Shown: piece by piece, positions 7,491 through 51,777 of the stretch
Layout: every line of letters starts with the position of its first letter
Numbering within the stretch: position 1 is the stretch's first letter
Assembly (NCBI GenBank): GCA_015232365.1
Contig: JADFZU010000003.1
Span: 24,708-88,707, forward strand
Length of the DNA: 64,000 nt
DNA from: Magnetococcales bacterium
GTDB taxonomy: Bacteria; Pseudomonadota; Magnetococcia; Magnetococcales; JADFYX01
Reading direction: 5' to 3'
Notes under the pieces: model-generated
Databases searched by the model: none
Seen by the model: the letters and a program-made list of their open reading frames with translations, nothing else
What the model was told of the DNA's origin: nothing
Made by a program: the position numbers and the translations under genes

Positions 7491-8954
7491 CTACCCCAAA
7501 ATTTGCAACACCCCTTTGGCTTTGGCTTTAAATTCATATAAAGAGCGAGTATTAAAAATACTACGCAGAATATATTTGGGACGCAGATAGAATTTCATGT
7601 ATGCTTTTTTCTGTATTTTGACTTGATCCTCAATAGAGACAAACTCCTCCCAATGATCAACGGTAAAACCCGGTTTCGGGTCTAGAGCAAAGGCATTCCA
7701 CCTATCTCCATCGATCAAACCCTGTTCATCAGCCTGATGGAATAGAGGAGTATTTGGGTAAAGGTTGAGGACTGATATCTGAGCATAATCTGGATCAATT
7801 TTATTCATAAAGGCCAAATTATTCTCCATATCCTCCTGGCTTTTCTCAAAAGGCAGCCCAATCATGAAATCAGCAATAGTTCTAATATTCAGTTCACGAC
7901 ACCACTTAAAAACATTTTCAACCTGTGCAATGGTTGCTCCTTTTTTCAACGCTTTCAGGCCCTCATCTGTCCCGGTTTCAACCCCAAATGAGATCATTCG
8001 ACATCCGGCATTTTTGGCACGAACCAGAGACTCTCTGGTAACATTATTAACCCGCCCACGGAAATCCCAATGAATAGATAGCCCACGACGCTCTACCTCA
8101 TCACAAAACTCAATGACCTTTTTAGAGGTTATATTGAACAGATCATCATAAAAATGAAATTCGCTATAGCCCATAGCCAAGCACTCTTCAACCTCATCGA
8201 GTACTAGCCCAACAGCCCGTGGTCGATACCTCTTATAAGGTACATCACAAAAAGTACACTTATAAGGACAGCCGCGACTACTGATTATTGTCGCTAAATC
8301 ACCTGTCATACCAACCGTACTGTGGTATTTTATATGTCGTATGTAAGAACGATTTGGAGCTGGCAGGGTATCGATATCGTCGATATAACCAGGCGGGACC
8401 ATCACATTTCCTAAAAACCGTTTATCGTTATAGCTATTTTTTTGCCAGGATTTAATGGACTCCCTGGTATAGACTCCAAGAATTTCTGTAATTTCCCTGT
8501 TTTGCTCCAATGCATTCACCAACTGTGTAAAAGCCACCTCTCCCTCGCCAACAACAATAGAGTCAAACTCAACCAACTGAACCGCTTCAAATGGAAAGGC
8601 AATGGGGTGATGGCCTCCCATGCAGATGTGGGCATCAGGAACTATCTCTCTGGCGGTCTTTGCCACCTGATGAACGTCTATCAGGGAGATTGTAAAACTA
8701 GTAACACCTATAATATCTGGCTCTATTTCCTGAATGATTTTTTTCAATCCTAGATGGGATATTTTTTCGCCAACGCAATCTTTGAAGAAAAGCTGATGAC
8801 CGTTGGTATTCTCCTCCAAATAGGTAAGAACATATAGCGGGCCAAGTGGAGGAAAGGCTCCAAAGTCATCAGTCTCAAGATAGGCCTCCCCATCTTCATT
8901 TGGATATTCCAACACGACATTTTCACTTGGAGGGTTTATTAATAATATTTTCAT
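7491..8954 (-). CDS. B12-binding-domain radical SAM enzyme (class B radical SAM, probable methylase)
   Basis: N-terminal cobalamin-binding-like domain (IIGVTSFTISLIDVHQVAK...ICMGGHHP). Radical SAM cluster motif SSRGCPYKCTFCDV (CxxxCxxC). Confidence 0.85.
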   Translation of the reverse strand: MKILLINPPSENVVLEYPNEDGEAYLETDDFGAFPPLGPLYVLTYLEENTNGHQLFFKDCVGEKISHLGLKKIIQEIEPDIIGVTSFTISLIDVHQVAKTAREIVPDAHICMGGHHPIAFPFEAVQLVEFDSIVVGEGEVAFTQLVNALEQNREITEILGVYTRESIKSWQKNSYNDKRFLGNVMVPPGYIDDIDTLPAPNRSYIRHIKYHSTVGMTGDLATIISSRGCPYKCTFCDVPYKRYRPRAVGLVLDEVEECLAMGYSEFHFYDDLFNITSKKVIEFCDEVERRGLSIHWDFRGRVNNVTRESLVRAKNAGCRMISFGVETGTDEGLKALKKGATIAQVENVFKWCRELNIRTIADFMIGLPFEKSQEDMENNLAFMNKIDPDYAQISVLNLYPNTPLFHQADEQGLIDGDRWNAFALDPKPGFTVDHWEEFVSIEDQVKIQKKAYMKFYLRPKYILRSIFNTRSLYEFKAKAKGVLQILG

Positions 8955-9020
8955 AATTTAACAATGAGAGCTAAAAAGTTTTATTTGTTGCATACACCAG
9001 AGAACCACCAACCCAGCATA

Positions 9021-19116: not shown

Positions 19117-19124
19117 GTGGAAGT

Positions 19125-19538
19125 ATGTCAAAGAACAGTAGTTACCATAGTACCACAAACCAAGAGAAACCCAACACTGAAGCCAGGTCTTCAGCTATCA
19201 ACCATAAGACATGGGAAACACTGCGTGAGGATCTTGGTGGAAATATTGATATGCTTACACAAAAGTTTTTACAGAAGTTGGATGGTCGTACTGAGAGTAT
19301 TTTGGCGGCAATTTCTGTAAATGATAGTGAGGCACTTAGAAACGAAGCCCACGCACTAAAAGGAACATCTGCAACCATTGGTGCTGAACTGCTATCACAG
19401 TTGTGCCGGCAACTAGAAGAGTGCGGAAAAAAAAATGATTTTGCACCAACCGAGGAGTTAAAAACTCTTCTATTGGCGGAAGCTAAGCTGGTTAGAGACT
19501 GTCTAGAAAACATTATTAAAGGCCAAAACAAAAGCTAA
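19125..19538 (+). CDS. Stand-alone histidine phosphotransfer (Hpt) protein
   Basis: 137 aa with EAHALKGTSATIGA (Hpt HxxKG motif). AGGTGGA SD. Starts 8 nt after the kinase stop. Confidence 0.85.
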   Translation: MSKNSSYHSTTNQEKPNTEARSSAINHKTWETLREDLGGNIDMLTQKFLQKLDGRTESILAAISVNDSEALRNEAHALKGTSATIGAELLSQLCRQLEECGKKNDFAPTEELKTLLLAEAKLVRDCLENIIKGQNKS

Positions 19539-19597
19539 CATTTAACTGGGGGAAGTTAGTTGTGGTTATTTTAGAATAATTGGAGCAAAAAAGGGCG

Positions 19598-21091
19598 ATG
19601 AGTAAAACAAACATACCAACAAAACCTCTGATTCTCGTAGCAGATGATGATGACTTCATGTTGGATGCAATCACAATGTTTCTAACCAATGCTGGTTATG
19701 AAGTAATTGAAACTGCAAATGGTCAAGAGGCGTTCCAGGCTTTTGTGAGTCGCCGTCCAGATTTAGTCCTGTTGGATGGACAAATGCCGGTAATGGATGG
19801 CTTTGAAGCGTGCCGGAGAATAAAAGCAGACACCTTTGGTGCTCAAACACCTGTAATCATGATTACCGCCTTAGACGATGATCAATCGGTCAACAATGCT
19901 TTTCTCGTTGGTGCTCAGGAGTTTATCACCAAGCCCATTCTCTGGTCTGTTCTAAAGCAGCGTATTCGGCTTCTATTAGATCAAAAAAGTGCCAATGCAG
20001 CGATTCGTGAACGGGATGAACTCATCGCTGTTTTTTTTGAACACACCCCGACGGCTGTAGCCATGTTTGACCCTGAGATGAAATATCTATTAGCCAGTCA
20101 ACGCTGGTTGAAAGATTATAATTTAGAAGGCAAACCTATCATTGGAAAGTCCCACTACAAACTGCTTCCTAATGAGCCATCACGCTGGCAGGATATTCAC
20201 AAGAGCTGTCTCAAAGGTAATATAGAGCGTAGTGAAGCTGAGCTTATTGATGATAACTGGTATAGGTGGGAAGCTCTGCCTTGGCAGAAAAAGGCAGAAG
20301 ACGCAGGTGGTATTTTGATGTTTACAGAGAACATAACCCCACAAAAAGAGATGGAAGATGAGATAAAGGCCCATAGAGACAGGCTAACTTTTGAGAGGGA
20401 GATAATTGAAGAGATAATCAACAAAATGCGAGCATCAAAGCGTTTTGACCCTACAAACCTTCGTTATATTCAAGCGTCAGCAGAAACAAGTTCTGGAGAC
20501 CTTCTCCTCTCAGCCTTCCGTTCTGATGGAGCACAACATGTTGTTTTGGGAGATTTTACCGGCCACGGACTTCCAGCAGCAGTTGGCGGACCAATTGTTT
20601 CAGATATTTTCTACTCCATGACCAAAAAGGAGATGCATCTTTCAAGAATTCTTCTTGAGATTAACGACCAGCTTGTCGAAAAAACTCCTGTCAGCATGTT
20701 CATGGCTGCCGGTTTTCTTGAGCTGGACCCAGAACGGCGTACTCTTACCGTTTGGAACTGTGCTATTCCTTCTATTTTAATCTACCGCAACAAAAAAATA
20801 CTCCATAGGGTTGAGTCCGGGTATATGGCACCGGGAATGATGAGCAAAACCAATTCTAATGGTGTGGTTTTTTCTGTAGAGCCTGGAGATGTTGTTATTG
20901 CTTACACCGATGGTTTTATGGAAGAGACTGGTGAAGATGGGGAGATGTTCGGACAGAAAAAGTTTGAACTTTTGATCAGCAAAATGTTGGCACATGAAGA
21001 GCCTATGGAAACCTTAACAAAGACACTAAAATGCTTTAGGACTGGCCACGATCAGAGCGATGACATGACTATACTGGAACTAACCTGCTAA
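19598..21091 (+). CDS. Response regulator REC-PAS-PP2C (SpoIIE/RsbU-type) serine phosphatase
   Basis: REC ([24 protein letters not shown]), PAS (FFEHTPTAVAMFDPEMKYLLASQRW), PP2C (GDFTGHGLPAAVGG ... DDMTILEL). The ATG at 19598 has GGAG 12 nt upstream. I prefer it to the TTG at 19580 in the track. Confidence 0.85.
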   Translation: MSKTNIPTKPLILVADDDDFMLDAITMFLTNAGYEVIETANGQEAFQAFVSRRPDLVLLDGQMPVMDGFEACRRIKADTFGAQTPVIMITALDDDQSVNNAFLVGAQEFITKPILWSVLKQRIRLLLDQKSANAAIRERDELIAVFFEHTPTAVAMFDPEMKYLLASQRWLKDYNLEGKPIIGKSHYKLLPNEPSRWQDIHKSCLKGNIERSEAELIDDNWYRWEALPWQKKAEDAGGILMFTENITPQKEMEDEIKAHRDRLTFEREIIEEIINKMRASKRFDPTNLRYIQASAETSSGDLLLSAFRSDGAQHVVLGDFTGHGLPAAVGGPIVSDIFYSMTKKEMHLSRILLEINDQLVEKTPVSMFMAAGFLELDPERRTLTVWNCAIPSILIYRNKKILHRVESGYMAPGMMSKTNSNGVVFSVEPGDVVIAYTDGFMEETGEDGEMFGQKKFELLISKMLAHEEPMETLTKTLKCFRTGHDQSDDMTILELTC

Positions 21092-21203: not shown

Positions 21204-22997
21204 TTAATCTAGGTTGAGAGCTGATTTTGCATTAGGTTCAAGGCACTTGAGATCAAGAATTATCAGATCATTAAAAGCAAATATTTTTAATTTTGGAATC
21301 AGACGAATCAACTCATAGCCGGCCTCTTTTCCAGCCAGCCTCTTCTTTTTAGCATACTCAAGAAATGGGGCGAAATACCTTAATTTGCCATCTTCAAAAT
21401 GTCTCTTATCAATGACAATATGGGTTACACCGTAGCTGTCTCTCAAACTTTTAATAGCATCCAGGTCTGTCGAAAAATAGGCATCTATAAATTTGTAAGT
21501 TCTTTCGCCGGTTATGTCAGAGATTTTTTTAAGAACCGGGAAGGCGTACTCATTGGAGATAAATATGGAGCGCCTGGCAAGAAACGGCAGGGACTCAACA
21601 ATGCTTTTCGGCCAGGCGGCAATCATCACATCTTTTGGTAAAGTTTGCACATATTCAATAATAGGCTCGTACTCCATAAGATCTTTATCAATGCCTATTT
21701 TAACCTTACCTTTTCCACCCAAAACCAATAGAGCACAAACCCCAACAAACAGAACAAAAAATTGTCGGGAGTAACGCTTGGTAAAAAGTGAAATATTAAA
21801 CCGGCTACCAAGAAAACCAACCATAGAATATGTAACCGCTGGCAAGGCAACCAATAGAAACGGTGGCAAGGTAGCAGAGAGATATCGCACCGGTAGATAT
21901 AGCCGTGGCACTAACGGAATCGAGACGATATAACCAAGACAACCGGCAGCAAAAATTATTAATAGAATCTGCCCTCCCGGATTTTTAGCAAGAGCCAACA
22001 GATAACCGACAAAAACAAAACCCAGCAATAGAACTACGACAACATAATCACGATTTATTCCTCTATCTTTAAGCCACCATTTACCGCTAGTTCGCAGAGC
22101 ATAATTCCACTCTTCTCCCCACCTTAAATCAGTCAAAGTTTCCAGGGATATATTCTTGATTGTCAAAGAGAGAGGTTGAATCGGAATACATGGGCTATTC
22201 TCCCCCATGCGACCATTCGGCCCCATCTCCTCATATTCGTCACAATACTCTGTGGTTAAAAGTGGTCCATGGGCACTGTTTTCCATCAGATGTTTAGCTT
22301 CAACTGCAACAAACAGCAGAGCCGTGACAGCCAAAAAAACAGCCCGCCGCTTGAATGACCAACCTTCTGCCTCACCACGAAGGTTTTGCGGCCAGACCAT
22401 CAACCATAAAAACAGTATAATACTGACTATAAACCCTGAAGGAGGGTAAACAGAGACCCCCAACAGACAGATAAACGCCACTGCTTTCAAACGCCTGAAT
22501 AACATTGCCGCAAGAGAAAGAGCGATTACAGGAAAGATAAATGTTCTAGTGAGGCCGCTTAAATCCGGCCCTCTGGAAAGAAGCAGTGCGATAGTGACCC
22601 ACGCCCCACTCCACCCGCTAAGACGGTAGGAAGCCATACCTATAGCAACCAAACCTATAAAAAAAAGGATGATTCCTACAGTATTGAAATTAGAGTACGG
22701 GTCGCTAAATAATCCTGCAAATTTGTAAATAAGATAAAAACCAATAGGTGTGGTTTTTTCAATATAGTCGACTATATAATCGTTTGGAAAAAGTTCAGCA
22801 TCTATAATGCGAAGTAGAGGAACCCCAAAGCTACGGAGATCTGAGCTAAAAATATATGGGTCATATAGAGACTCAATATAGCCTTGCCAGACAGGCCCAT
22901 ATAAAAAACCCAAGGAGAGGAACAAGATGAATAAGCACTTCCAACAAAAAGCTGGCCGCTCCTCTTCTAGATACTCTCCATCCTTTTGGTTGGACAT
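21204..22997 (-). CDS. Polytopic membrane protein with C-terminal soluble domain (unknown function)
   Basis: Many hydrophobic helices over about 420 aa, then a hydrophilic ~170-aa tail. The ATG at 22997 is preceded by GAGG with a 7-nt spacer. The track start at 23054 is a GTG with no SD. Confidence 0.6.
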   Translation of the reverse strand: MSNQKDGEYLEEERPAFCWKCLFILFLSLGFLYGPVWQGYIESLYDPYIFSSDLRSFGVPLLRIIDAELFPNDYIVDYIEKTTPIGFYLIYKFAGLFSDPYSNFNTVGIILFFIGLVAIGMASYRLSGWSGAWVTIALLLSRGPDLSGLTRTFIFPVIALSLAAMLFRRLKAVAFICLLGVSVYPPSGFIVSIILFLWLMVWPQNLRGEAEGWSFKRRAVFLAVTALLFVAVEAKHLMENSAHGPLLTTEYCDEYEEMGPNGRMGENSPCIPIQPLSLTIKNISLETLTDLRWGEEWNYALRTSGKWWLKDRGINRDYVVVVLLLGFVFVGYLLALAKNPGGQILLIIFAAGCLGYIVSIPLVPRLYLPVRYLSATLPPFLLVALPAVTYSMVGFLGSRFNISLFTKRYSRQFFVLFVGVCALLVLGGKGKVKIGIDKDLMEYEPIIEYVQTLPKDVMIAAWPKSIVESLPFLARRSIFISNEYAFPVLKKISDITGERTYKFIDAYFSTDLDAIKSLRDSYGVTHIVIDKRHFEDGKLRYFAPFLEYAKKKRLAGKEAGYELIRLIPKLKIFAFNDLIILDLKCLEPNAKSALNLD

Positions 22998-23496
22998 ATA
23001 AGAGCCTCGTTCATCGGCAAAATGTATGAAATGTGGATTGACAAACTTAAGCACTCGCTACTAACACGATAATCAGTATTTTTATAACATAGCATAGTAT
23101 AGTATAAGCTATAGATCTCACAATTGATTAAAAAATTCCCGCCTAATTCAGGTGAAAATACGATCAAAACTCTCTATGACCATAGCATTTTTGCAAGAAG
23201 TTTTCGAACTACCGTCTAAAAACATATATAATTCTAAAATTGGCAGTTGGGCCTACATTAAGTGCACATATAGGATGATCTTCTGCAAAGTCAAAAAAAA
23301 ACAACCAATATTAACAGTTATTAGCCCAGGCAGATCTATCTCTTTTTAAAAGAGTATATTTTTGGCTTTTCATTGTTATATAATAGATCTATTAAAAATG
23401 GATTGGTTTTAACATGGTTAACATGTTGATAGTTAACAGAACTAATCACCTGGTATTTTTACAAGCTCCAGTTTTGGCTCAAAACAAGGAAGAGTT

Positions 23497-38084: not shown

Positions 38085-38762
38085 GTGATTAGATTATTCA
38101 TCGGCTATGATAAACGCGTACCTGTGGCCTACAATGTCTTGGCACACAGCGTACAGCGGCAAGCTTCGCAACCTGTCTCCATTACTCCACTGATGCTCAG
38201 CCAGCTAAAAGGTTTAATGACAAGAGAGCCACATCCACTACAATCCACTGATTTTGCCTTCTCCAGATTTTTGGTTCCCTACCTATGCAATTTTCAGGGT
38301 TGGGCAGTTTTTATGGATAATGATATGTTGCTCCTTGATGATATTGCCAAGCTTTGGTCACTACGTGACGAACGCTATGCAGTACAGGTTGTTAAGCACC
38401 AGCATGAACCGAGAGAAGAGACCAAATTTCTCAACCAGACCCAGACAAAATACCAAAAAAAGAATTGGTCCAGCGTAATGCTGATGAACTGCAACCGCTG
38501 TAAAGCTTTAACAAAAGAGTATGTCAACAGTGCCAGCGGCCTGGAGTTACACCAATTCAAGTGGCTTGAAAGCGATGAGCTTATAGGCAGCATTGACCAA
38601 CGCTGGAATTTTTTAGCTGGTGTATATCCAGCAATACCAATCTCCCAGATATCAAATATCCACTACACCATCGGCGGCCCTTTTTATGAAGAGTATAAAA
38701 ACTGTGACCTTGCCAGCCAATGGTTTGTTGAGCGGGATATAATGCTGCACACAGAAAACTAA
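38085..38762 (+). CDS. Putative nucleotide-sugar glycosyltransferase (GT8-like fold)
   Basis: FSRFLVPYLCNFQGWAVFMDNDMLLLDDIAKLW resembles the GT8 DxD region. GTG start. Confidence 0.4.
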   Translation: MIRLFIGYDKRVPVAYNVLAHSVQRQASQPVSITPLMLSQLKGLMTREPHPLQSTDFAFSRFLVPYLCNFQGWAVFMDNDMLLLDDIAKLWSLRDERYAVQVVKHQHEPREETKFLNQTQTKYQKKNWSSVMLMNCNRCKALTKEYVNSASGLELHQFKWLESDELIGSIDQRWNFLAGVYPAIPISQISNIHYTIGGPFYEEYKNCDLASQWFVERDIMLHTEN

Positions 38763-39280
38763 ACAGCACAACAACATCTTCAAAATACTACTAGCCAATT
38801 CATAGGAAAGCCGTAGCATATCAGTTAGTTTATAAACAAAAAAAATGGTAGTTGCATATGTTAAATATTGTGATATCCTGCAAAAAAAAGCAGATTATCA
38901 GTTAACATCCATAGTACAAATAGCAACATATGAAAGCTTCAACACAAAACGATGCTGTGCAAATTGTAAAATCAATACTGTACGCCTCGATCAAGTATCT
39001 GTATATACTATGGTTTATTGTTTATATGATAGTTTTTTAATCTGTTGGTCAATATCAATTGGAAAACAGTACGCACACCCTACCCCACAAACAAAAAAAC
39101 TCTTTATTTCCATATAAATTTTAGTTTGGACAAAACATGCAGGAAAATGCTATAGTGAAGATAGCTTTTTATTGTTAATTCATGAATTTATCTCTATCTA
39201 AAAATAACAACCCAGGTAGATTTGCATTCAGCAAAACACAACTGTCAAACACAGGGTGTAATAAATCAACGGATAGCTAA

Positions 39281-40258
39281 ATGACAAAAAGATCGTTTCT
39301 GCTCCGACAACTATCAATATTGCTCATCACTATAGCAGTTTGCACTTTTCAACCTTCAAAAGCCGATAGTGCTAACTGTTTATGGGTCTCATCATACCAT
39401 CAAGGTTATGAGTGGAATGATGGCATTGGCAGAGGGTTGGATGCTACTCTGGCATCCCGGTGCAAAATTGAAAAATTCTACATGGATACCAAACGCAATA
39501 CCAGCCAAGATTTTGGCCGTAAGATGGGGGCAGAAGCCTTTGCTCTGGTCCAACGCAACAAACCAGATCTAATTATCGCCTCTGACGACAACGCCTCCAG
39601 ATATTTTGTAAAGCCATATCTGAAAAACAGCAAAATACCAGTAGTATTTTGCGGAATAAACTGGGGCATAGAAGAGTACGGATACCCGTATGATAACGCC
39701 ACAGGAATGGTAGAGATTGCTCCAGTAACAGCTATTTTAGAAGAGATAAAACGGACTATAAATAGCCCATCCAGAGGTTTATACCTATCTGTTGATGTAC
39801 CTACAGAACATATCGACTATTTTTGGTATAAAAAAACCTTTGCTCGGAATAGAGTTACTGTTGATAGCCACTTTGTGAAAACCCTGGCAGAGTGGAAGGC
39901 AGGATACCTTACAGGGCAGCGATATGATTTTATTATCATTGGCAACAATGGTGGCATCAAAAATTGGAACAAAAAGCAGGCTGAAGATTTTGCCTATAAA
40001 AATGCCAAAAAACTCACCGTAACCAACTATGACTGGATGATGCCCTACACAATGTTGGCTGAAACTAAAATCCCTGATGAGCAGGGAGAGTGGGCTGGAA
40101 TGGTAGCCTTGGAAATTTTAGATGGCATGCACCCGTCTGATATTCCCATAGTACCCAATCGACGCTGGAGCTTTTTTGTTAATCACAAACTTCTTGAAAA
40201 GGCAGGTATTCAATTAAAGCAAGATTTTCTAATTAATGCCATAAGGATACAACAATGA
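39281..40258 (+). CDS. Periplasmic ABC-type substrate-binding-like protein (ABC_sub_bind-like), probable sensor partner
   Basis: Signal peptide ([22 protein letters not shown]), then an SBP-like fold pattern ([13 protein letters not shown]..., [21 protein letters not shown]). Its stop overlaps the start of the CHASE kinase (ATGA). Confidence 0.45.
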
Positions 40259-43200
40259 GTCAACTCTTCACTTTGACTCCTAAACAAGCAACAAGATTTG
40301 TCACTTTTGTAGGCATCTGTTTTACAGCTCTACTGCTCTACACTTCCTGGATATACACCATTGAACAGGACCGTAAGTCTCTTGGCAAAGAGTCAGAATC
40401 TTTATCGCAGAACTTTACCCATTCATTAGTAACTGGTGTGCAGAGCATACATGATATTTCACTAATATTCCGAGTCTCTGAAAGTGTAACTGCTGATGAG
40501 TTTCAAATACTTTCTGAATCAATGCTCTCAAGAAACAAATTTCTAAAAGCGGTGCTCTATATGCCGTTAGTTAACGCAGAAAATAGAGAAATATTTAAGC
40601 AAAAAATGCGTGATATGGGCTACATCAGTTTTCAAAACATAGAGACTGCAAGCCCAATTCTAGACGAACACCTGGTGAGAGACCAGCACCTGCCGGTACA
40701 GTTTATTGAGCCATTCACAGTTAAAAACAGCACATTATTGGGCTGGGACCCTCTCTCCCATCCAACAATCTCTATCGCTATACAACAATCCATAAAAAGC
40801 GGCAGCCCCATAATGCTCTCTGTAAACGAAGAGACAACGAAGTTTAAAGGAGATATTTTTATACAGGCAATTTATGCTGGGCGTAATTCCCCTAAAACTA
40901 CTGAGGAGCGAAGACAACGGTTAAGAGGGGCTATTGCACTTCTGTTAGATCCCAACAATCTAGCAACTGTAAAAATTCCCTCAAACATGGAAATGTCACT
41001 AATAGTCCGGGACAATAATACCCCTGATAGACAACAAATACTTTTTGAAAAAAAAGATTTAACTGACAAACCAAACAAACCAGTTTTTACCACAATTTTT
41101 GAAAATCACGATCTTTTTGCCACATCCCAGCAAACTTTTACCTTAAATATTAAAAAAAGAATTCATACAGAAGAGCTATCTTTATTACCTATGGGCATAG
41201 CTTTTTCAGCCGGTCTGATTTTAAGCATCTTGGGGGCCGCTCTTATTCGGGGGACGGTAAACAAAAACCTCATATTGTCCAACCGGAACATAGAGATTGA
41301 AAAAGAGGTACAACGGCAAACCTCCATGTTGAAGCTGGTCCTTGACACTATTCCAGTTCAGGTGTTTTGGAAGGATATCCAAGGTCAATTTCTTGGCTGC
41401 AACAAACTATTTGCAGCTAGTGCTGGCTATAAAAATGCTCACGAAATCATTGGTAAAACAGACTTTGACATGCCCTGGAAAGAGTATGCAAGAAATTTTA
41501 AACAGAATGACATGATAGTCCTTTCGTCAGGGTCGGCCATATTAAATTATGAAGTGCAAAAGAGCACGTCTGATGGCAAGCAAATCTGGCTGGAGACCAG
41601 CAAGATACCTCTGCCTGGATTTGAAGGAGAAATTATTGGTATTTTAGGGGTCCATGCAGATATAACAGAGCGCAAAAATGCAGAGCAGCAGGCCAAGAAT
41701 CTGGTTTGTGAACTCAACTTCCAAAAATCCTCTCTGGATGAACATGCAATCGTCTCCACTTCTGATGTTAGAGGAAACATCACCTACGTCAATGATAAGT
41801 TTGTCAAAATTAGTGGCTATACAAGGGAAGAGTTGATTGGAAATAATCATAGAATGGTTAAATCCAATGAACACTCTAAAGAGTTCTACAAAAATATGTG
41901 GCAGACCATCACCAGTGGCAAACCCTGGCATGGAGAGGTGAAAAACCTGTCTAAAAACGGTGACTCCTATTGGGTAAGGGCAACCATTGTTCCCTTTTTA
42001 AACGACCGGGGAAAACCGTTTAAATATGTTTCAATACGGACAGACGTAACCCCTATGAAAAATCTTGAGACCAGCCTGCAAATCGCCAAAGAGGAGGCAG
42101 AAGCGGCTGGCAGAGCCAAAAGCGATTTCCTGGCTAATATGAGCCATGAAATCCGTACACCAATGAATGCAATAATTGGCTTGAGTCATCTCTGTCTGCA
42201 GACAACTCTTACCACTCGCCAGAAAGATTACATCAGCAAGGTTAATAGCTCTGCAACCTCACTACTACGCATTATCAACGATATCCTGGATTTTTCAAAG
42301 ATTGATGCTGGTAAACTGGATATGGAGTCGATTGATTTTACCCTGGAGGAGGTTCTTGGTAACGCCTCTGCAATGATCTCCATTAAAGCTCAAGAGAAAA
42401 ATTTGGAATTTCTCATGGAGACCGATAAAGAGATTCCTCCATGTCTGGTTGGCGACCCACTGCGTTTAGGACAGATTCTTATCAATCTTGCCAATAACGC
42501 CGTCAAGTTCACAGATCATGGTGAAGTTATCATAATTACCAAGCTTATAGAAAAGGACGAAGAGTCTATCCGGTTGCAGTTTACCATACAAGATACCGGA
42601 ATAGGCATGACTCCTGAGCAACAAGCTGGACTTTTCCAAGCCTTCTCCCAGGCCGACTCATCGATTACCCGCAAATATGGCGGAACCGGACTGGGGCTGA
42701 CAATTTCACAGCGGCTTATTGAGATGATGGGTGGAAAAATAATTGCTGAGAGCGAGGCAGGAGTCGGTTCCAAATTTATTTTTGATGCCAGATTTGGGGT
42801 ATCAAGCCGGATAATTAAAAAAGTAATGGTCCCTACACAAGATTTGCGAGGCATGAAAGTCTTGACAGTAGATGATAATGAAAGTGCACGAAATATAACC
42901 TCAGAATATCTAGCCTCCTTTACCTTCAATGTGACAACTGCCAAGAGCGGTGTTGAAGCCATTGCCACTGTTAAAGAGGCAGACATTGCTGGAGAGCCTT
43001 TTAATTTAATAATCATGGACTACATGATGCCGGAGTTAGACGGTATTTCCACCTCGGCTAAAATCCGTAACGTTCTGGATTTAAACCAGAAGCCAGTGAT
43101 CATAATGGCGACAGCTTATGGTGAAGAAGACGTAGTCAACCGAGCAAAAAATGAGGCGGAAGTTGATGGATTCTTGGTCAAACCAATAAGCCAAAACCTG

Positions 43201-44370
43201 CTCTTTGAGTCCATAATGGAGGCGTTTGGCAAAACTGGAAACAAGAGCACGCAAGAGACAGCAAGCTTTAATAATGGTGAAAATTTCAAGACTGCTCTAT
43301 CTGGGGCAAAAATTCTTCTTGCAGAGGATAATGAAATCAACCAACAGGTTGCAATTGAGCTGTTAGAGCAGGCCAACATAACCGTCACTCTTGCTGTGAA
43401 CGGCAAAGAGACAATAGACTTTATCGAAAAAGAGAGTTTTGATGGAGTGTTGATGGATGTACAGATGCCGGTAATGGATGGAATTACAGCTACACGATTA
43501 ATTCGTAAAAACCAACGATTTGCCAACCTGCCAATTCTGGCCATGACCGCCAACGCCATGTCCGGCGACCGTGACCTCTGCCTTGATGCTGGTATGCAGG
43601 ACCATATAGCCAAACCTATCGACCCTGACAACCTTTTCTCTACCCTTGTTAAATGGATAAAACCGGCAGAAAAAGAAGCTCCTCCAGACTTCAAAGTCAA
43701 CGAGGATCTTCAAGAAGAGGAGATGCAGCCGATCTCTATCCCGGAAATTCCCGGTATAAACACCAAATCCGGCCTGAAACGCATGGCTGGCAATATCAAT
43801 GGATATTTAAGTCTGCTGATTAAATTCAAAACAAACCAGGGTGGGGCCGAAGAGAGTATTCGCCACGCCTTAGCCACAAACGACATGCCAACTGCCGAAC
43901 GCATTGCCCACACTCTAAAAGGTGTAGCAGCGACCATTGGTGCCGACTCTCTACAGTTAAAAGCCAAACGTTTGGAGGCGGCATTCAAAACACATACAAG
44001 CCAAGAGCAGATAGAGAGTTTGTTATCAGAGACAACCACAGAGCTATCGAAAATCTGTGCTGCTATAACCAGTGCCATACCTGAAGAGAAAAAGGCAGCC
44101 AGCCCCAAGTTGCTTATTGAGGATTCTGAGCAGCTCAACAGTGAAACTGTGGCCCTTATTAAAACAATATACAACCAACTGGAAATTTTTGATGCCGATG
44201 TAAAAAGCAGCTTGGAAAATCTAAAAAACACCCCACTATCTCAGATGCTGTTTGACTGTATTTATGAGATGGAAAACAGTATTGAACAATATGAGTTTGA
44301 AGATGCCCAAAAACGTTTAAAAGAGTATGCAGCCAAACACAATATTGCTCTGGAGTATACTGATGGGTGA
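40255..44370 (+). CDS. Hybrid sensor kinase: TM - CHASE - TM - PAS - PAS - HisKA - HATPase - REC - REC - Hpt
   Basis: CHASE-like periplasmic region ([26 protein letters not shown]). Two PAS domains. H-box [11 protein letters not shown]2 [24 protein letters not shown] and [11 protein letters not shown]. Hpt [12 protein letters not shown]. Confidence 0.9.
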
Positions 44371-46237
44371 GCAACTTAAAAAAACCTCTATATTGATTGT
44401 TGATGATACACTGAAAAATCTTGATGATTTGCAAAATATATTACAAGACATATATACAGTTTCTATAGCTAGAAATGGCCAGGTTGCTCTACAACTGTCT
44501 ACTAATGATCCACAGCCAGATCTTATCCTGCTAAATATTTTACTGCCGGATATGGACGGCTACAAACTCTGTCGTCAACTTAAAAACAGCCAACCAACAG
44601 AAGATATTCCAGTGATTTTCATCATCCCCAATGGTGATAACCATGCAGAGCTGGAGGGGCTGAAGGTTGGTGGAAATGAGTTTATATATGAACCATTAAA
44701 TCCTAATACAGTAAAGATGCGAATAGAGACCCAGTTGACACTTCGCAAGTTAATCAGTGATACAGAGAATAAAAACCACCAAAAAAAGAGTGTAGACCGC
44801 CTGCAAATTGCTTTGCAAAATGGCAAGCTTGGGTTTTGGGATGTCAACCTTATAAGCGGAGAACAGGTTCTAAACAATGCAGGAATAGATGTTTTCGGTC
44901 ACTCTTCAACGCAAGAGTTTATGTGCCGTGAAGATTGGATTGCCACACTTCATCCAGATGACAAAGAGCGGGTTTTAGAGGCAGGTGCAAGCTACCGCTC
45001 TGGAGCAAGCAATGAATACGATTTAGAATACCGGATCATCACCCCTGGCGGTGAAGTGCGCTGGGTTAATTCTAAAGGTACAGCTACAGAGTGGGACCAG
45101 CATGGCAACGCCACCAGAATGTTGGGAACAGTAGCCGATATTAGTCAACGCAAAAACTTAGAGGCATCATTGATCAATGCCAAAGATGTGGCAGAAAAAG
45201 CCAGCCAGGCTAAAGACAACTTTCTAGCTAATATCAGCCATGAAATTCGTACACCTCTAAATGCTGTGATCGGTTTGACTCACATTTGCCTGCAAACAGA
45301 TATGAGAAATGAACAGAGAGAATATCTTGATAAAGTTTATCTCTGCGCTAACTCGCTTCTATCCCTGATCGACAACATCTTGGATTTTTCAAAAATTGAA
45401 GCGGGAAAATTATCTATGGAGAGTTCTCACTTTTCTTTAGATAAACTACTCAACGAATTGGTAGCAACTTCCAACATTAAATGCCAGGATAAAGGTCTGA
45501 AACTTCTGCTGGAGATAGACCAGAATGTTCCCAAACAACTAGAAGGTGACTCACACCGTTTGGAACAGGTGCTAAACAATTTGGTTGGCAACGCCATAAA
45601 ATTTACCGAAAAAGGCAATGTAACTATTTATACTGAACTGCTGGAAGAGAGCAATAGCAGCACACTTCTTAAATTTACCATCCAAGATTCCGGTATTGGC
45701 ATGAACTCTCAAGAGGTTGCTGAACTATTCCATGATTTTTTCCAGGCTGATCCATCAACCACCAGAAAATATGGCGGGATAGGGTTGGGGCTGACTATAA
45801 GCAAAAGTCTTGTGGAGTTGATGGGTGGGGAGATAAAAGTAGAGAGTAAACCAGGTGAAGGGAGCCGGTTCTCCTTTTCAGCCAGGTTCAATAAAGCACA
45901 TGGTTATATAGCCGATATATTGACAAGTTCAGATGATAGTGCCAACCTTGGGACTTCGCAGGCAGATGCAGCAATCAGAGCAGAACCAATGCAGCAATAT
46001 ACCGATGCAGAACCTGATCTACTGGCCCCGTTATTTCAACAGGCTGTAGATCTTCTTCTAGAGTATGACTCTTCTGTTGAAAGAGTTGTCAAAAAAATCA
46101 TCCCGTTAGTGCAAAACGAAAACCGAAGGACCAGGCTTTCCGCTATACAAAAGGCACTTGGAGAGTATGATTTTGAAAAAAGTTTAATAATTTTTCAAGA
46201 ATGGGCTAAAGCTGAAGACATAGATCTAGAGGTGTAG
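44363..46237 (+). CDS. REC - PAS - HisKA - HATPase histidine kinase with C-terminal helical tail
   Basis: [29 protein letters not shown] ([12 protein letters not shown]...), H-box [11 protein letters not shown]2 [10 protein letters not shown]. The ATG at 44363 overlaps the upstream gene by 8 nt. The track start at 44327 lies inside the upstream gene. Confidence 0.85.
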
Positions 46238-46338
46238 CAAATATTGTCAACATTAGGCCAGAACACCGTAAACATCATTAAACAGCATCAAGATAGCCAC
46301 AAATAGCAGATACACTGCTAACTGTATGGATAAGCAAT

Positions 46339-47475
46339 ATGTCAAATAGCAATACTGACAAACAGACTATTTTGGTGGTTGATGATACAGCAGAGAATCT
46401 TGATGTATTAAAAGGTGCTCTACTTCCCGATTTTAAAGTCAGGCTAGCTCCGAATGGTAAGGTCGCATTAAAAGCGGCTAACGTAAAACCCCATCCTGAC
46501 TTGGTACTGTTAGACATCATGATGCCGATAATGGATGGCTTTGAAGTGTGCAGAAGGTTAAAAGCTTCTGAAGCTACTAAAGATATTCCTGTTATTTTTG
46601 TTACGGCAAAAACTGGAGAAGATGATGAGCTTGAAGGGCTTAAACTAGGAGCTGTGGACTATATTACCAAACCAATCAGCATCCCTATTGTCAGAGCCAG
46701 GGTCAATGCCCACCTTGAGCTACGAAAGTCTAAACAGCAGCTTGATAGACACAACAAACGTCTGCTTTATGAGCGGGAGTTGATCGAAAAAATTATCCTT
46801 AAAATGCGGGATGCAGATGTTTTTGATAACCGTAATTTACGTTATCTTATCTCTCCAGTAGAAGAGACTGCTGGAGATATGCTCATTTCAACGTTTACCC
46901 CTGATGGCCGGCAGTTGGTTCTGCTTGGAGATTTTACCGGTCATGGACTTCCTGCAGCTATAGGTGGTCCACTGGTTACATATATTCTCTATGAGCTAGC
47001 GATGCGTGGGGAGTCTGGGGAGTCAATTTTAAGCGTTATTAACAGCCAGCTTTATGCCAGGCTACCAACCGGTATTTTTTTTGCAGCTTTTTTTCTCGAA
47101 ATCTCCCCGGAACGAGACATAGCTACCATATGGAATGCAGCAATACCTGATGGGGTTGTTCTCAGAAAAGGTGATATTGTTAAACAGTTACCATCCAACT
47201 TACTGCCTCTAGGGGTAACTAGCTCCATTGATACTGCCAAAGCCGCCAACAAAATCCCTTTAGAAACAGGAGATCGCATATTTATTTTTTCAGATGGAAT
47301 TGTCGAAGCAAGGGGTAACAACCGTGAGATGTTTGGGTATAAGAGAATAGAGGATTACATCAAACAATTGGCACTGGCAGATGAAAACTTTAAAGAGCTG
47401 CTATCTTTACTAAACAACCACGTTGGCTCCTCTATTCACGATGATGACATCACTCTTGCAGAGATACGGTTTTAA
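46339..47475 (+). CDS. Response regulator REC-PP2C (SpoIIE/RsbU-type) serine phosphatase
   Basis: ILVVDDTAENLD, LLDIMMPIMDG, ITKP, then GDFTGHGLPAAIGG ... FSDGIVEA ... DDDITLAEI. Clear paralogue of the phosphatase part of 19598-21091. Confidence 0.85.
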   Translation: MSNSNTDKQTILVVDDTAENLDVLKGALLPDFKVRLAPNGKVALKAANVKPHPDLVLLDIMMPIMDGFEVCRRLKASEATKDIPVIFVTAKTGEDDELEGLKLGAVDYITKPISIPIVRARVNAHLELRKSKQQLDRHNKRLLYERELIEKIILKMRDADVFDNRNLRYLISPVEETAGDMLISTFTPDGRQLVLLGDFTGHGLPAAIGGPLVTYILYELAMRGESGESILSVINSQLYARLPTGIFFAAFFLEISPERDIATIWNAAIPDGVVLRKGDIVKQLPSNLLPLGVTSSIDTAKAANKIPLETGDRIFIFSDGIVEARGNNREMFGYKRIEDYIKQLALADENFKELLSLLNNHVGSSIHDDDITLAEIRF

Positions 47476-47499
47476 ACTGATCATGCTTGGAGAGGAGTA

Positions 47500-48411
47500 G
47501 TGGGAAAAAAAAGCAAAAAACCATCGGTTCTTATTGTCGATGACGTGCCTGAAAATTTGGACATACTAATAAACACTCTAAAAGGTGAATATACAGTACG
47601 TCTTGCAAAAAATGGCAAATTGGCTTTAAAGCTGGCGAAGGCAGAGCCACAACCTGATATTATTTTGCTGGATATCATGATGCAAGTCATGGATGGCTAC
47701 GAAGTATGCCAGCAGCTAAAAGCTGATAGCTCTACAGAGTTGATTCCCGTGGTATTTGTTACTGCAATGACCGCTGTGAAAGATATCAGCAAAGGGTTGG
47801 GACTTGGTGCACACTACTATTTGACAAAACCCATAGACCCACAAAACCTATTGGCTGTTGTCTCATCAGTACTAGAAAAACAGAAACATCTGCATGAGTT
47901 AAAAGAAAATAGCAATAAAACCATAGATACTTTTAGATTGATTCATAGCGGACTTTTTCATTTTAAAACCCTTGAAGAAGCCAGAAACCTGGCTATGCTT
48001 TTAGCCAAAACCTGCCCGTTCCCAGACAGGTGTTATGGTGGTCTAAAAGAGTTGATGCTCAATGCTGTTGAACACGGAAACCTTGGCATCACCTACTCCC
48101 AAAAAGACGGGATGGACGTGGCTGCTCTTGAAGAGGAAGTATCCCGCCGCTTGGCACTATCCAAATATGCCAATAAAACTGCATCCATTCTAATTGAACG
48201 TAGCGATAAAGAGATCCGCTTCTTGATATCGGATCAAGGTGATGGTTTTGACTGGCAAATATTTATGGAGTTTGATCCTGCACGTATTTTTGATACCCAT
48301 GGCCGGGGTATTGCCATGGCCAACTCTGCATTTTTTGATAGGGTTGAATACCGGGGAAACGGCAGTGAAGTTTTAGCTGTGATAAATATTGAGCCAATAG
48401 AATCTTTATAA
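47500..48411 (+). CDS. REC + RsbW/SpoIIAB-type GHKL ATPase (anti-sigma-like serine kinase) protein
   Basis: REC (VLIVDDVPENLD, LLDIMMQVMDG, LTKP). C-terminal N-box ELMLNAVEHGN, G1 DQGDGFD, G2 THGRGIAMAN, with no HisKA/H-box. GTG start, with SD AGAGGAG very close by. Confidence 0.7.
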   Translation: MGKKSKKPSVLIVDDVPENLDILINTLKGEYTVRLAKNGKLALKLAKAEPQPDIILLDIMMQVMDGYEVCQQLKADSSTELIPVVFVTAMTAVKDISKGLGLGAHYYLTKPIDPQNLLAVVSSVLEKQKHLHELKENSNKTIDTFRLIHSGLFHFKTLEEARNLAMLLAKTCPFPDRCYGGLKELMLNAVEHGNLGITYSQKDGMDVAALEEEVSRRLALSKYANKTASILIERSDKEIRFLISDQGDGFDWQIFMEFDPARIFDTHGRGIAMANSAFFDRVEYRGNGSEVLAVINIEPIESL

Positions 48412-48553
48412 CCAAAACTTCAATGCTCTATGATCCCTTTGTTTAGATGTCCAATAGTATGATTGATAAAAAAAGTTGATACATTGACAATAGCTTCAGT
48501 AAATTTACCCAAGGTTTGCTGTGCAACCCCCATATTTATAATGCAAGGCTGTT

Positions 48554-48709
48554 TTAAGGCTGGATAACAAGAGTCTTTTTATAGCAATTTATAGCCTTAT
48601 CCATCTGCCCTAGCTGATGAAAACATAACCCGGTTTGCAGTGCCTCTGCCGCTCTGCTCTTTCTGTCAGTAATTTCATTATTTAATCTGGAATTTTCTAA
48701 ATCTTCCAT
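48554..48709 (-). CDS. Possible 51-aa single-TPR-motif peptide or truncated TPR gene fragment
   Basis: MEDLENS...AEALQTGLCFHQLGQMDKAINCYKKTLVIQP-stop fits one TPR unit and ends where a second would begin. The longer track ORF overlaps the VWA gene. Weak SD. Confidence 0.2.
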   Translation of the reverse strand: MEDLENSRLNNEITDRKSRAAEALQTGLCFHQLGQMDKAINCYKKTLVIQP

Positions 48710-48728
48710 GATTAGACTCACACACTGT

Positions 48729-50960
48729 TTATTTAAGTGACTCAGCCAACCTGACCAAACCAATAAACTCAGCCCGGTAACCAAATTGATCTGCACCTTT
48801 ACCACTATTAGCCAGAGCAATGATATCCTTTTGGCTATACTCTCCAGTATATTTTCCGCCTCGGAGTTTTTGACCAAATGCAGCAACTGCAGCAGCAAAG
48901 CGCATATCGTCAGAGAGAGCCTCCACCCCTTTTAGAAGATCACCATCATCAATAGCTCTACTGATCAAGCGGCTTTTTGTCTCATTGGGGAGTTTGTAAC
49001 GCATTTTGAGAAATGCAAACTCTCCAACATTTGCACTGGATTTCTTACTTTCAGCAATTTTTTTACCATACCGTAAAGGTTCAACCAACTTCCCACCACC
49101 ATCGGCAAGAGCTACCTCATAGATAGCAGTCACAGTGTGGCCTGCTCCTATATCACCTGCATCCACTGCATCATTGTTAAAATCCTCACGACCAAGAAGA
49201 CGGGTCTCATAACCTATCAGGCGGTACTCAGAAATCCGCTCCGGGTTGAACTCCACCTGTATTTTAACATCTCTGGCGATAGGAAAAAGGTTGGCTGTCG
49301 CCTCTTCAACCAGAACTTTACGAGCTTCGTTCAGGTTATCTATATAGGCAGCAATACCGTTACCATTTTGGGCCAACTCCTGCATCAGGCGATCATTATA
49401 GTTGCCCTGCCCAAAGCCCAAAACTGAGAGAAAAACTCCACTTTTACGTTTTCGCTCAATCAAGCCTTTAAGGGCAGAAACATCAGTAGTACCAACGTTA
49501 AAATCACCATCAGTAGCCAGGATTACCCGGTTTACACCGCTTTTGTCAAAGTTCGCCTCTGCCAAAGAGTAGGCCAGTTTAATACCGGCTCCACCAGCAG
49601 TAGAACCTCCGGCTGTCAGTTTGTCCAGAGCCGTAACTATCTTATGCCGCTCTTTGACTGGGGTAGGCTCTAAAACTGTTCCTGCTGCACCGGCATAGAC
49701 AACAATTGCTACGGTGTCGTCCGGCTTCAGAGAGTCGACAAGAAGTTTTAAACCGTTTTTGAGAAGAGGTAGTTTATCCCTGGCCCCCATAGAGCCTGAA
49801 ACATCGATTAGAAACACCAGATTACTCTTTTTAACCGCTTTGGTTGCAGCAAAACCCTTGATACCGATATGAAGCAGACGGGTCTCTGGGTTCCAAGGGG
49901 TGGTATAGAGAGCTACAGATGGTTTAAATGGTCGGCTCTTATCGGTTGGGGCGGCATAATCATAGTCGAAATAGTTAAGCATCTCCTCAACTCTAACTGC
50001 AGCAGGTTGAGGCAGTCGTCCGGCATTGATCTGACGACGAACAAAACTATAAGAGGCGGTATCAACATCAACAGATAAAGTTGATACCGGTTTTTCAGTA
50101 GTAAGATGGACCGGATTTAACTCCAACTCTGCAAAACGGTCCCGCTCCTCACCATCAACCACAACCGTAGCTACATCATCCCGGCCATGGGCCAGCCTGG
50201 GCAGCTCCTCTACAATCTGGGTAGCACCAAATTGCTGCAGACCAATTCGTTTAGAGAGCATGGTGCTCTGCTCTCTCTGCCGGGCAATCCTGGCTGACTT
50301 CATCGCCATAACCGGAGCAGAAGGAGCGTAGGCTGCATTAGGAGCACTGCTAGCCATGCTAGAGCTGCCTAAATAACTAATGCCTCCACCCTCAGAGACA
50401 TCATAGTCAACCTGTGGAGGCATATAACTGTGGGCTATTCCAGGCTGGCTTGGTGGAAGAAAATGTGGTTGTGCAACTGCCGGAGCAACTTTCTTGGCAA
50501 CTGCACCTGACATAGGAACCGGCTCAGGTTGAGGCATATCTGCTGCTGGCTCTACAACCACCGCCTCAGGTTTTTGCGACAACTCTTTTTTGGCAAGAGT
50601 ATTTGTCAACTTTTGGGGCTGGGCCGGGACAAAATTATCCTGGCTCATACCGGGAACCTGCTTTTGAATCTGCGGGACTAAAACCACCACTAAACCTGCT
50701 AAAGCCAATGCAGTTGCTGCGGCCATCTGTCTAGAACTGATATCCATCATCCAATCTCCTATAAGTTTAAAAATATGGGCTGTTATAGAGATTAGACTGC
50801 CACTGGATGTAGATCCTTGGAATTTTTTTTCAGATTGTCGTTCAAAAGCCTCCATTGCAGCCTGAATAGCCATCTTTTTAGCAGTTTCACTGGCAGGAGG
50901 AGTCGGTTCGGCATTTAAAGCTTTGTTGATATCTGTATCTTTGAGATCTGTTTTTTTCAT
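48729..50960 (-). CDS. Membrane-anchored von Willebrand factor A (VWA) domain protein (YfbK-like), candidate anti-sigma factor
   Basis: Short cytoplasmic N-terminus and one TM (AAATALALAGLVVVLV), then a Pro-rich linker. VWA-family N-terminal region (VSTLSVDVDTASYSFVRRQI). VWA MIDAS motif LVFLIDVSGSM. Long C-terminal domain. Its start overlaps the sigma-factor stop (ATGA). Confidence 0.75.
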   Translation of the reverse strand: MKKTDLKDTDINKALNAEPTPPASETAKKMAIQAAMEAFERQSEKKFQGSTSSGSLISITAHIFKLIGDWMMDISSRQMAAATALALAGLVVVLVPQIQKQVPGMSQDNFVPAQPQKLTNTLAKKELSQKPEAVVVEPAADMPQPEPVPMSGAVAKKVAPAVAQPHFLPPSQPGIAHSYMPPQVDYDVSEGGGISYLGSSSMASSAPNAAYAPSAPVMAMKSARIARQREQSTMLSKRIGLQQFGATQIVEELPRLAHGRDDVATVVVDGEERDRFAELELNPVHLTTEKPVSTLSVDVDTASYSFVRRQINAGRLPQPAAVRVEEMLNYFDYDYAAPTDKSRPFKPSVALYTTPWNPETRLLHIGIKGFAATKAVKKSNLVFLIDVSGSMGARDKLPLLKNGLKLLVDSLKPDDTVAIVVYAGAAGTVLEPTPVKERHKIVTALDKLTAGGSTAGGAGIKLAYSLAEANFDKSGVNRVILATDGDFNVGTTDVSALKGLIERKRKSGVFLSVLGFGQGNYNDRLMQELAQNGNGIAAYIDNLNEARKVLVEEATANLFPIARDVKIQVEFNPERISEYRLIGYETRLLGREDFNNDAVDAGDIGAGHTVTAIYEVALADGGGKLVEPLRYGKKIAESKKSSANVGEFAFLKMRYKLPNETKSRLISRAIDDGDLLKGVEALSDDMRFAAAVAAFGQKLRGGKYTGEYSQKDIIALANSGKGADQFGYRAEFIGLVRLAESLK

Positions 50961-51502
50961 GAGCGATCTCCCATATCCAGACAGGTAGTAAGATGTTTTC
51001 TAGCTTCAGAAAGTCGCCAGGAAATTGTTCCCTCAGCACACTGCTGGGCCTCACCTGCTTGGAGATGGTTAAAACCTTCGCCGTGTACTAGAAGCACTGC
51101 CATTCGCAAACTGTCCGGCAGCAGAGCGATGCAGCGTCTTATCATGCTGGCAAAAAGAGAGTTTTCGGGGTTGCCGCTTGCAGCCTGAAACTGGTCAAGA
51201 TCCCAGGCGGTATCCTCCCTCTGATCCCGGCTAGTTTTTTTCCGGTGAAAATCCCTGGCAGCGTTTAATGTTATGCCGTAAAGCCAGCTAGAAAATGCCG
51301 CCTCCCCCCGGTAGCCATTAATAGCTCCTGCCAGTTTGACACACACATCTTGAGCCACCTCTTCTGCATCCTCTTTTAGTCCGCTCCAACGATATGCAAG
51401 TTTATAAATCGCACTATAGTGACGCTCTAAAAGAGTGGAAAAGGCTGCCCTATCGCCATTTTGTGCCAACTCCACCAATCTGCCATCATCACATGCTTCC
51501 AT
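50957..51502 (-). CDS. ECF-type sigma-70 family RNA polymerase sigma factor
   Basis: Region 2 (DRAAFSTLLERHYSAIYKLAYRWSG...DAEEVAQDVCVKL, SWLYGITLNAARD) and region 4 (LPDSLRMAVLLVHGEGFNHLQAGEAQQCAEGTISWRLSEARKHL). The ATG at 51502 has GGAGG 4 nt upstream. The track start at 51523 is a GTG. Confidence 0.85.
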   Translation of the reverse strand: MEACDDGRLVELAQNGDRAAFSTLLERHYSAIYKLAYRWSGLKEDAEEVAQDVCVKLAGAINGYRGEAAFSSWLYGITLNAARDFHRKKTSRDQREDTAWDLDQFQAASGNPENSLFASMIRRCIALLPDSLRMAVLLVHGEGFNHLQAGEAQQCAEGTISWRLSEARKHLTTCLDMGDRS

Positions 51503-51777
51503 GCAGCCTCCAAAAACCAACACGGGTAAAATTTAACTTCTTACACATTTTAGATGCAATAGAGACAGAGATCCTTGGAATTTTATATATACTAAATGTT
51601 CTGTTGATAAGATTAGTATACACCTAATTGAGTTAAAAAGAGAGCCAGTATTTATTGTGGAAAAGATCTTTTTTCACTGTTGACGTTGTTAGCTGGAAGA
51701 TGAAGAGCTTTAGCCGTAATATCTCATAGTGTCTATACTGGTCATTGACAAACAGCTACTTAACCAAGGGAAACAGA

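Follow-up and report, generated by a model that had tools for sequence, protein, structure and literature searches.

In a 64-kb stretch of DNA from a Magnetococcales bacterium (GenBank assembly GCA_015232365.1, contig JADFZU010000003.1, positions 24,708 to 88,707; hereafter the window), we found a predicted phosphorelay operon whose last two genes encode response regulators with potentially opposing outputs. One is a receiver-PP2C serine phosphatase (REC-PP2C; 46339-47475, + strand), and the other joins a receiver to an RsbW-like Bergerat ATP-binding domain (47500-48411, + strand). In partner switching, a STAS protein is the shared substrate of a PP2C phosphatase and an opposing RsbW-type kinase. 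We propose that the two regulators could be the phosphatase and the kinase of such a switch, each gated by its own receiver and directed at a single-domain STAS protein whose gene lies in another part of the genome, a reading to which comparative sequence analysis leads us to give about an even chance. A preliminary description of the window had portrayed the locus as a split form of the SypE and HsbR regulators. This view stands in part: pairs of a REC-kinase and a PP2C phosphatase, with or without a receiver on the latter, recur in other genomes and about half of them are accompanied by a STAS gene, but the kinase domain is not of the HsbR subfamily and falls within the known LvrC/TciR family.

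The C-terminal domain of the 47500-48411 protein is RsbW/SpoIIAB-like and not a sensor ATPase devoid of HisKA, as the preliminary description had argued from its motifs. HATPase_c_2 was the only ATPase profile in Pfam to match it (29.2 bits against a cut-off of 27.4), while HisKA and HATPase_c gave no match. The motifs cited earlier are all in place, with the N-box (ELMLNAVEHGN) at residues 184-194, G1 (DQGDGFD) at 245-251 and G2 (THGRGIAMAN) at 266-275. Every nucleotide-binding residue is retained (E184 and N188 of the N-box, D245xGxG of G1, G268RG of G2) and is invariant in 16 out of 16 diverse family members, as are H192 and the extended D245xGxGF and G268RGIA motifs. The same alignment revealed a family-specific insertion after the N-box (HGNLGIxYxxK … ExxxRR), which begins as HGNLGITYSQK in the window protein. 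A profile of the family's C-terminal domain had as its best match in PDB the LvrC protein of Leptospira interrogans (9QIH, chain 9qih_A, molecule name SenB; E=3.8e-13), with the insertion motif covered, and matched RsbW (6M36) only marginally (E=0.014). The AlphaFold2 model of the whole protein, with a predicted local distance difference test score of 88, likewise had 9QIH as its top Foldseek match over the full length (324 columns, E=4.6e-16); the template modelling score was only ~0.4 because the orientation of the domains differs. In the model, a strand (150-155), a helix (158-169) and the N-box helix (175-194) follow one another in the β1-α1-N-box topology, so that the N-terminal β1-α1 dimer element of the RsbW/SpoIIAB fold is present together with the N-box, G1 and G2.

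Its canonical receiver, its HATPase_c_2 domain in a chain of ~300 amino acids and its similarity to 9QIH place the protein in the LvrC/TciR family. LvrC (LIC11110) stands last in the LvrA-LvrB-LvrC phosphorelay, in which it is phosphorylated by the Rec-controlled kinase LvrB, and it was crystallised with ADP:Mg2+ (Nat Commun 2026, PMC13269768). It shares with the window protein its length, domain order and family insertion (…NA.EHG..GI.YE.K…), and LvrB is a receiver-led kinase of the same gene type as 44363-46237 in the window. The two proteins are, however, only ~22% identical, lvrC is encoded apart from its kinases with no PP2C neighbour reported, and LvrB has a functional acceptor Asp where the receiver-led histidine kinase of the window has Asn. 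Leptospira itself has numerous STAS proteins. TciR, of the TciK/TciR system of Vogesella indigofera, is also a REC plus RsbW-like response regulator; its authors reported that the kinase residues are conserved, listed homologues that include Magnetofaba (Magnetococcales) and Leptospira proteins, and did not know its substrate or partner (J Bacteriol 2025, PMC12826045). We liken TciR to the window protein by description; unlike the latter, it pairs with a simple sensor kinase and has no reported PP2C.

The combination of a receiver with an RsbW-like domain is therefore a widespread response-regulator family that has already been described, not a one-off product of splitting. A protein search with 47500-48411 returned thousands of matches, although many probably match only in the receiver; the 120 best are ~300 amino acids long (290-320), have both Pfam domains precomputed in 116 cases, and include many from Magnetococcales metagenome-assembled genomes (MAGs). 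By a pattern scan of species-representative genomes we confirmed at least 589 relatives in Nitrospirota, Acidobacteriota, Beta- and Gammaproteobacteria, SAR324, Planctomycetia and other groups, and a kinase-domain profile detected the subfamily in 48 of the 56 genomes of the order, at one to seven copies each. Against this profile, family members score 100-260 bits, and the stand-alone kinases 180-215 bits.

The other member of the pair, 46339-47475, is an ordinary regulator of the RsbY/HenR type. Its SpoIIE match (118 bits) spans the full Pfam profile, as expected of a SpoIIE/RsbU-type PP2C phosphatase, and the motifs of the metal site are present: TAGD (177-180), GDFTGHG (197-203), SDG (318-320) and DDDIT (368-372). 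Its receiver is canonical (D15/D16, D59, T89, K111), as is that of 47500-48411 (D14/D15, D58, T88, K110), the residues of which do not vary among the 16 aligned family members. Within the operon, each of these two receivers is most closely related to the other (53% identity).

The histidine kinase gene upstream of the pair (44363-46237, + strand) also begins with a receiver, and Pfam confirmed the domain orders from which the preliminary description had recognized three receiver-led genes directly behind a CHASE hybrid kinase with an Hpt domain. All three receivers are present, but the first is degenerate. In the alignment, which we checked at the codon level, Asn58, Ile88 and Glu110 occupy the positions of the acceptor Asp, the conserved Thr and the Lys (codons at 44534-44536, where it is AAT, 44624-44626 and 44690-44692), so that canonical phosphorylation is possible in just two of the three receiver-led proteins. 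Judged by these residues, the domain is a pseudo-receiver that offers the Hpt domain no canonical phosphoacceptor. Of 15 other receiver-led histidine kinases sampled in relatives, all retain the acceptor Asp and 12 the complete DDDTK set. The kinase part of 44363-46237 has an intact H-box (SHEIRTPL), and its architecture matches that of an LvrB-type, Rec-controlled kinase except for the phosphorylatable Asp. We rejected LvrB-like activation of this kinase by the Hpt domain, given the Asn at the acceptor position and the altered Thr and Lys positions.

The link between these kinase domains and STAS and PP2C partners comes from a census of their loci. We annotated 100 loci around strong profile matches in the order with local hidden Markov models (HMMs), checking representatives with Pfam, and a second sample of 80 loci across phyla gave the same picture. 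In the pooled counts of non-redundant loci, with partners sought within 2.6 kb, 13 of the 17 stand-alone kinases have a STAS gene nearby and eight have a PP2C gene, always together with STAS; four have neither. Five of them sit in operons with the order hybrid histidine kinase-Hpt, REC-PP2C, STAS and kinase (representatives confirmed by Pfam). Among REC-fused kinases, 18 of the 158 loci contain a PP2C gene and 13 a STAS gene, nine of the latter in addition to PP2C. In the domain tree (FastTree, branch support not considered) these linked REC-kinases are scattered across ten or more clades, and they come from several phyla. STAS/REC-PP2C/REC-kinase clusters were found in three Thiotrichaceae (L148, L152, L164), further linked REC-kinases in SAR324 (L168) and the Bacteriovoracaceae (L174), and the order REC-kinase, STAS, REC-PP2C in a genome of the same genus (L029). 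Two loci nearly mirror the window, with hybrid histidine kinase-Hpt, histidine kinase, receiver-led histidine kinase, REC-kinase and REC-PP2C (L038, L086). Kinase and STAS genes are also operon-linked in L061, L079, L084, L087, L092 and L102. The STAS proteins that adjoin subfamily kinases nearly all keep the Asp-Ser phosphorylation site (Thr-Ser in L029). Taken together, the comparisons support a model in which subfamily kinases would act on STAS proteins in concert with REC-PP2C phosphatases, the window pair being such a module with an unlinked STAS partner.

Two kinds of neighbour recorded in the census deserve mention in their own right. In four further loci of the same genus (L058, L063, L064, L213), subfamily kinases of ~300 amino acids lie convergent to a pair of genes for a REC-GAF/PAS-PP2C protein (696-828 amino acids) and a STAS protein; the N-terminal region of these kinases (~170 amino acids) had no receiver match with Pfam or the local HMM and may be a degenerate receiver. 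REC-HD-GYP (HD_5) regulators often directly adjoin REC-kinase genes (L079:8398-9486, L014:12265-13293, L030, L054, L055, L060, L070 and L112), which hints at a recurrent link of the family with cyclic di-GMP turnover.

As the preliminary description had noted, the window has no detectable STAS open reading frame (ORF): a six-frame Pfam search was negative, and so were two local STAS HMMs, even at E<=10. STAS proteins with the Asp-Ser site do exist elsewhere in the genome, which is a MAG of 82.7% completeness (G000). By Pfam it has five single-domain STAS genes and two SulP-type ones; four of the single-domain proteins, on contigs C42, C22, C65 (10338-10634) and C19 (5739-6032), keep the Asp-Ser site, and the local HMM pointed to a sixth, weaker single-domain candidate (C10:27619-27984). 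An HMM built from the kinase-adjacent STAS proteins of other genomes ranked C22 (94 bits) above C42 (79 bits), C65 and C19, in this order. The two top-ranking proteins, our candidate targets, are both linked to hemerythrin genes (G000:C22:22589-22852, - strand; G000:C42:10681-10941, + strand). The C42 gene closes a cluster (7600-10941) in the order EAL-like, P-II, stand-alone kinase, hemerythrin and STAS. The kinase in this cluster (167 amino acids, 41% identical to the window domain and with the same motifs) is the only other strong member of the subfamily in the genome, and C22 has a paralogous hemerythrin-STAS pair (22589-23320) without a kinase of its own. The hemerythrin-linked STAS proteins may couple the sensing of O2 or redox state to partner switching.

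In the mechanism that we infer, including the two enzymatic activities, the pairing of donor with receivers and the identity of the STAS target, a periplasmic signal would be perceived by the CHASE hybrid kinase, probably together with the binding protein of the operon, and phosphoryl groups would pass through its receivers to its Hpt domain. The Hpt domain, the PAS-containing kinase (by analogy with LvrB and LvrC) or both would then phosphorylate the two canonical receivers. Once phosphorylated on Asp, these would gate the STAS-serine kinase and the PP2C phosphatase, with opposite effects on the same STAS serine. The relay would in this way set the ratio of kinase to phosphatase and hence the phosphorylation state of an unlinked STAS protein, the foremost candidates being the C22 and C42 proteins with their link to hemerythrin. 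We advance only tentatively the more specific proposal that one relay phosphorylates both receivers in a push-pull manner, that the binding-protein/CHASE signal and O2 or redox state are integrated at one serine of the C22 or C42 STAS protein, and that LvrC/TciR-type regulators in general are receiver-gated STAS kinases.

Several observations weigh against the partner-switch reading. In no fewer than 136 of the 158 loci with a REC-kinase (86%), PP2C and STAS are both absent within 2.6 kb, and the kinase gene typically lies directly behind a hybrid kinase-Hpt gene; in the window's own genome, a six-frame Pfam search for STAS and STAS_2 found no match on the contig that carries the window (C37). 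The three-gene block, whose co-conservation the preliminary description had left to be checked, is not kept as an orthologous unit. BLAST within kinase-centred loci had suggested that the REC-PP2C was co-inherited with the REC-kinase, an idea that we dropped when a whole-genome search placed its nearest homologues elsewhere. These homologues (56-65% identity), including those in three congeneric sister genomes, occur in relay operons or alone and in either case without the kinase, and the PP2Cs encoded beside REC-kinases are remoter paralogues, with 43-48% identity to the window protein. The nearest relative of 47500-48411 (82% identity) lies on a 2.8-kb JGI contig behind a cut gene of 204 amino acids, to which a search with the PP2C C-terminus found no close match. 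The window kinase domain also falls in a different subfamily from the true HsbR-like fusions of the order, and the authors of TciR found no RsbV homologue in Vogesella (PMC12826045). The relatives of Vogesella that we checked do carry STAS and PP2C genes; Chromobacteriales in the family sample are Andreprevotia, Deefgea, Jeongeupia and Chitinibacteraceae.

LvrC has a dimer topology of the RsbW/SpoIIAB kind, and its authors proposed that it is a receiver-regulated anti-sigma factor, without naming a cognate sigma factor (PMC13269768). Applied to the window, where the context points instead to a STAS kinase, this would mean that 47500-48411 sequesters a sigma factor and frees it upon Asp phosphorylation, that it has no STAS substrate and that the REC-PP2C is an independent output of the relay with an unrelated phosphoprotein as substrate. 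We hold this to be a possible but rather doubtful alternative. The lack of a nearby STAS or PP2C gene in most of the family speaks in its favour; yet no sigma gene recurs beside them either. Around ~100 family loci in the order we saw no recurrent sigma-factor or other partner gene, and clustering of 1,259 unannotated neighbour ORFs yielded lineage-specific synteny only, which led us to reject a conserved sigma partner. An extracytoplasmic function (ECF) sigma HMM, a weak test that was built from a single sequence, matched only the window's own sigma among the family loci, and this sole nearby sigma gene lies on the opposite strand with a VWA-type partner of its own. Pure sequestration, moreover, would not need strictly conserved ATP-binding residues, and the stand-alone members of the subfamily are STAS-linked. 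Since RsbW and SpoIIAB are both kinases and anti-sigma factors, sigma binding could also coexist with STAS phosphorylation.

The absence of the kinase next to the closest REC-PP2C homologues, together with the abundance of REC-PP2C genes in the order (2-21 per genome), means that the adjacency could be incidental clustering, some of which chance alone would produce. The locus would then be a branched phosphorelay in a region dense in signalling genes, its phosphatase and kinase working on different targets, which we consider somewhat less probable again than an anti-sigma factor. The block is not conserved, the orthologue in sister genome G009 (L117; 65% identity) stands behind a receiver-led histidine kinase without any kinase-type regulator, REC-HD-GYP genes are at least as frequent beside REC-kinases as PP2C genes, and the window has a second relay with its own REC-PAS-PP2C. 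Set against this, PP2C adjacency in 18 of the 158 loci is well above chance for ~5-10 PP2C genes per ~3,500 genes (a rough estimate that assumes unclustered genes), it recurs in distant phyla along with STAS, and the window genes are 24 nt apart and have receivers of 53% identity. A last alternative, that the Bergerat domain works inside the two-component machinery, for instance by regulating the neighbouring pseudo-receiver kinase or by acting on it in trans as an ATPase or kinase, strikes us as very improbable. A receiver-led histidine kinase gene does lie directly upstream of the REC-kinase gene at L036, L038, L086 and L027, and the unusual degenerate receiver in the window might have gained another role. 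The histidine kinase nevertheless has a complete HATPase_c domain of its own, and most family members lack such a neighbour. We know of no precedent for a Bergerat domain acting on a histidine kinase in this way.

Compared with known partner switches, the proposed module resembles HptB-HsbR-HsbA of Pseudomonas aeruginosa, SypE-SypA of Vibrio fischeri and CrsR-CrsA of Shewanella, where a receiver supplied by an Hpt domain governs both the PP2C phosphatase and the RsbW-type kinase that act on a STAS protein and where outputs other than sigma factors are possible. Those systems have one chain, one receiver and an adjacent STAS gene, whereas the window has two proteins, two receivers and no STAS gene nearby. 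HsbR-like fusions from the same order (565-580 amino acids) reach no more than 42-48 bits with the family profile, compared with the 100-260 bits of family members, which assigns the window kinase domain to a different subfamily. The REC-PP2C of RsbK-RsbY-RsbV-RsbW (Bacillus cereus) and that of HenR/STAS (Anabaena) are under hybrid-kinase control and remove phosphate from a STAS protein, as could be the case here, but there the kinase that opposes them lacks a receiver. In the literature that we searched, we found no description of both antagonistic enzymes with receivers of their own in one relay operon. The comparative tie of LvrC/TciR-type domains to STAS and PP2C partners, suggested here by gene neighbourhoods, is also new.

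Canonical pairs of a STAS protein and an HsbR-like REC-PP2C-kinase fusion (569 amino acids) occur in two sister genomes (L217, G009:C76, 9228-11292; L218, G011:C66, 8834-10911), with a small conserved gene on one side and an array of flagellin genes on the other. In the window's own genome the corresponding flanks (C37:93248-93619 and C70:1-6545) are assembled mid-contig without the pair, so that it seems to have been lost or moved, which is a further point to be set against the partner-switch reading.

The genes discussed above are part of a block of five closely packed genes on the + strand (39281-48411, from Pfam and ORF coordinates), the spacing of which fits a single signalling operon. 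The first gene (39281-40258) encodes a protein similar to periplasmic ABC-type substrate-binding proteins (ABC_sub_bind, 39 bits), and its stop overlaps the start of the gene for the CHASE-PAS-PAS-HisKA-HATPase-REC-REC-Hpt hybrid sensor kinase (40255-44370). Both internal receivers of this kinase retain the acceptor Asp, Thr and Lys, and the protein is the likely phosphodonor via its own Hpt domain. Its stop overlaps in turn the ATG at 44363 (ATGGGTGA) of the gene for the pseudo-receiver-PAS-HisKA-HATPase kinase, which has an alternative start at 44327 and whose receiver still matches the Pfam profile at 63 bits. A gap of 101 nt precedes the REC-PP2C gene, the receiver of which scores 86 bits against Response_reg; after a further 24 nt the REC-HATPase_c_2 gene begins with a GTG codon preceded by a ribosome-binding site (GGAGAGGAG). 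Scans for promoters and terminators in 38700-48800 gave nothing above shuffled sequence, the top promoter-like site being at 39127-39156. Across ~180 family loci the usual neighbour is likewise a hybrid histidine kinase-Hpt or histidine kinase gene.

Downstream of the operon and convergent with it (48729-51523, - strand) lie the ECF sigma gene and, translationally coupled to it, a gene for a 743-amino acid VWA/YfbK_C protein; nothing ties this pair to the RsbW-like domain. The second relay of the window (14056-21091) comprises a soluble hybrid kinase of 1686 amino acids with five receivers and two kinase cores, a stand-alone Hpt protein (19125-19538) and the REC-PAS-PP2C protein (19580-21091). 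The two receiver-PP2C proteins of the window are the only strong SpoIIE-type phosphatases in the assembled genome.

Response regulators that combine a receiver with an RsbW-like domain were first studied genetically in 2025, with TciR, and structurally in 2026, with LvrC of the Leptospira Lvr virulence relay. Our comparative evidence suggests a class of substrate for these regulators, which both papers left open. Should the partner-switch reading be wrong, the locus would simply be a relay that branches to two enzymes with unrelated outputs. If it is right, both antagonistic enzymes would be under direct phosphorelay control, a logic that has not been described for the HsbR, SypE or RsbW systems, and LvrC/TciR-type regulators, including the virulence regulator of Leptospira, would be receiver-gated STAS kinases, instead of or besides anti-sigma factors.

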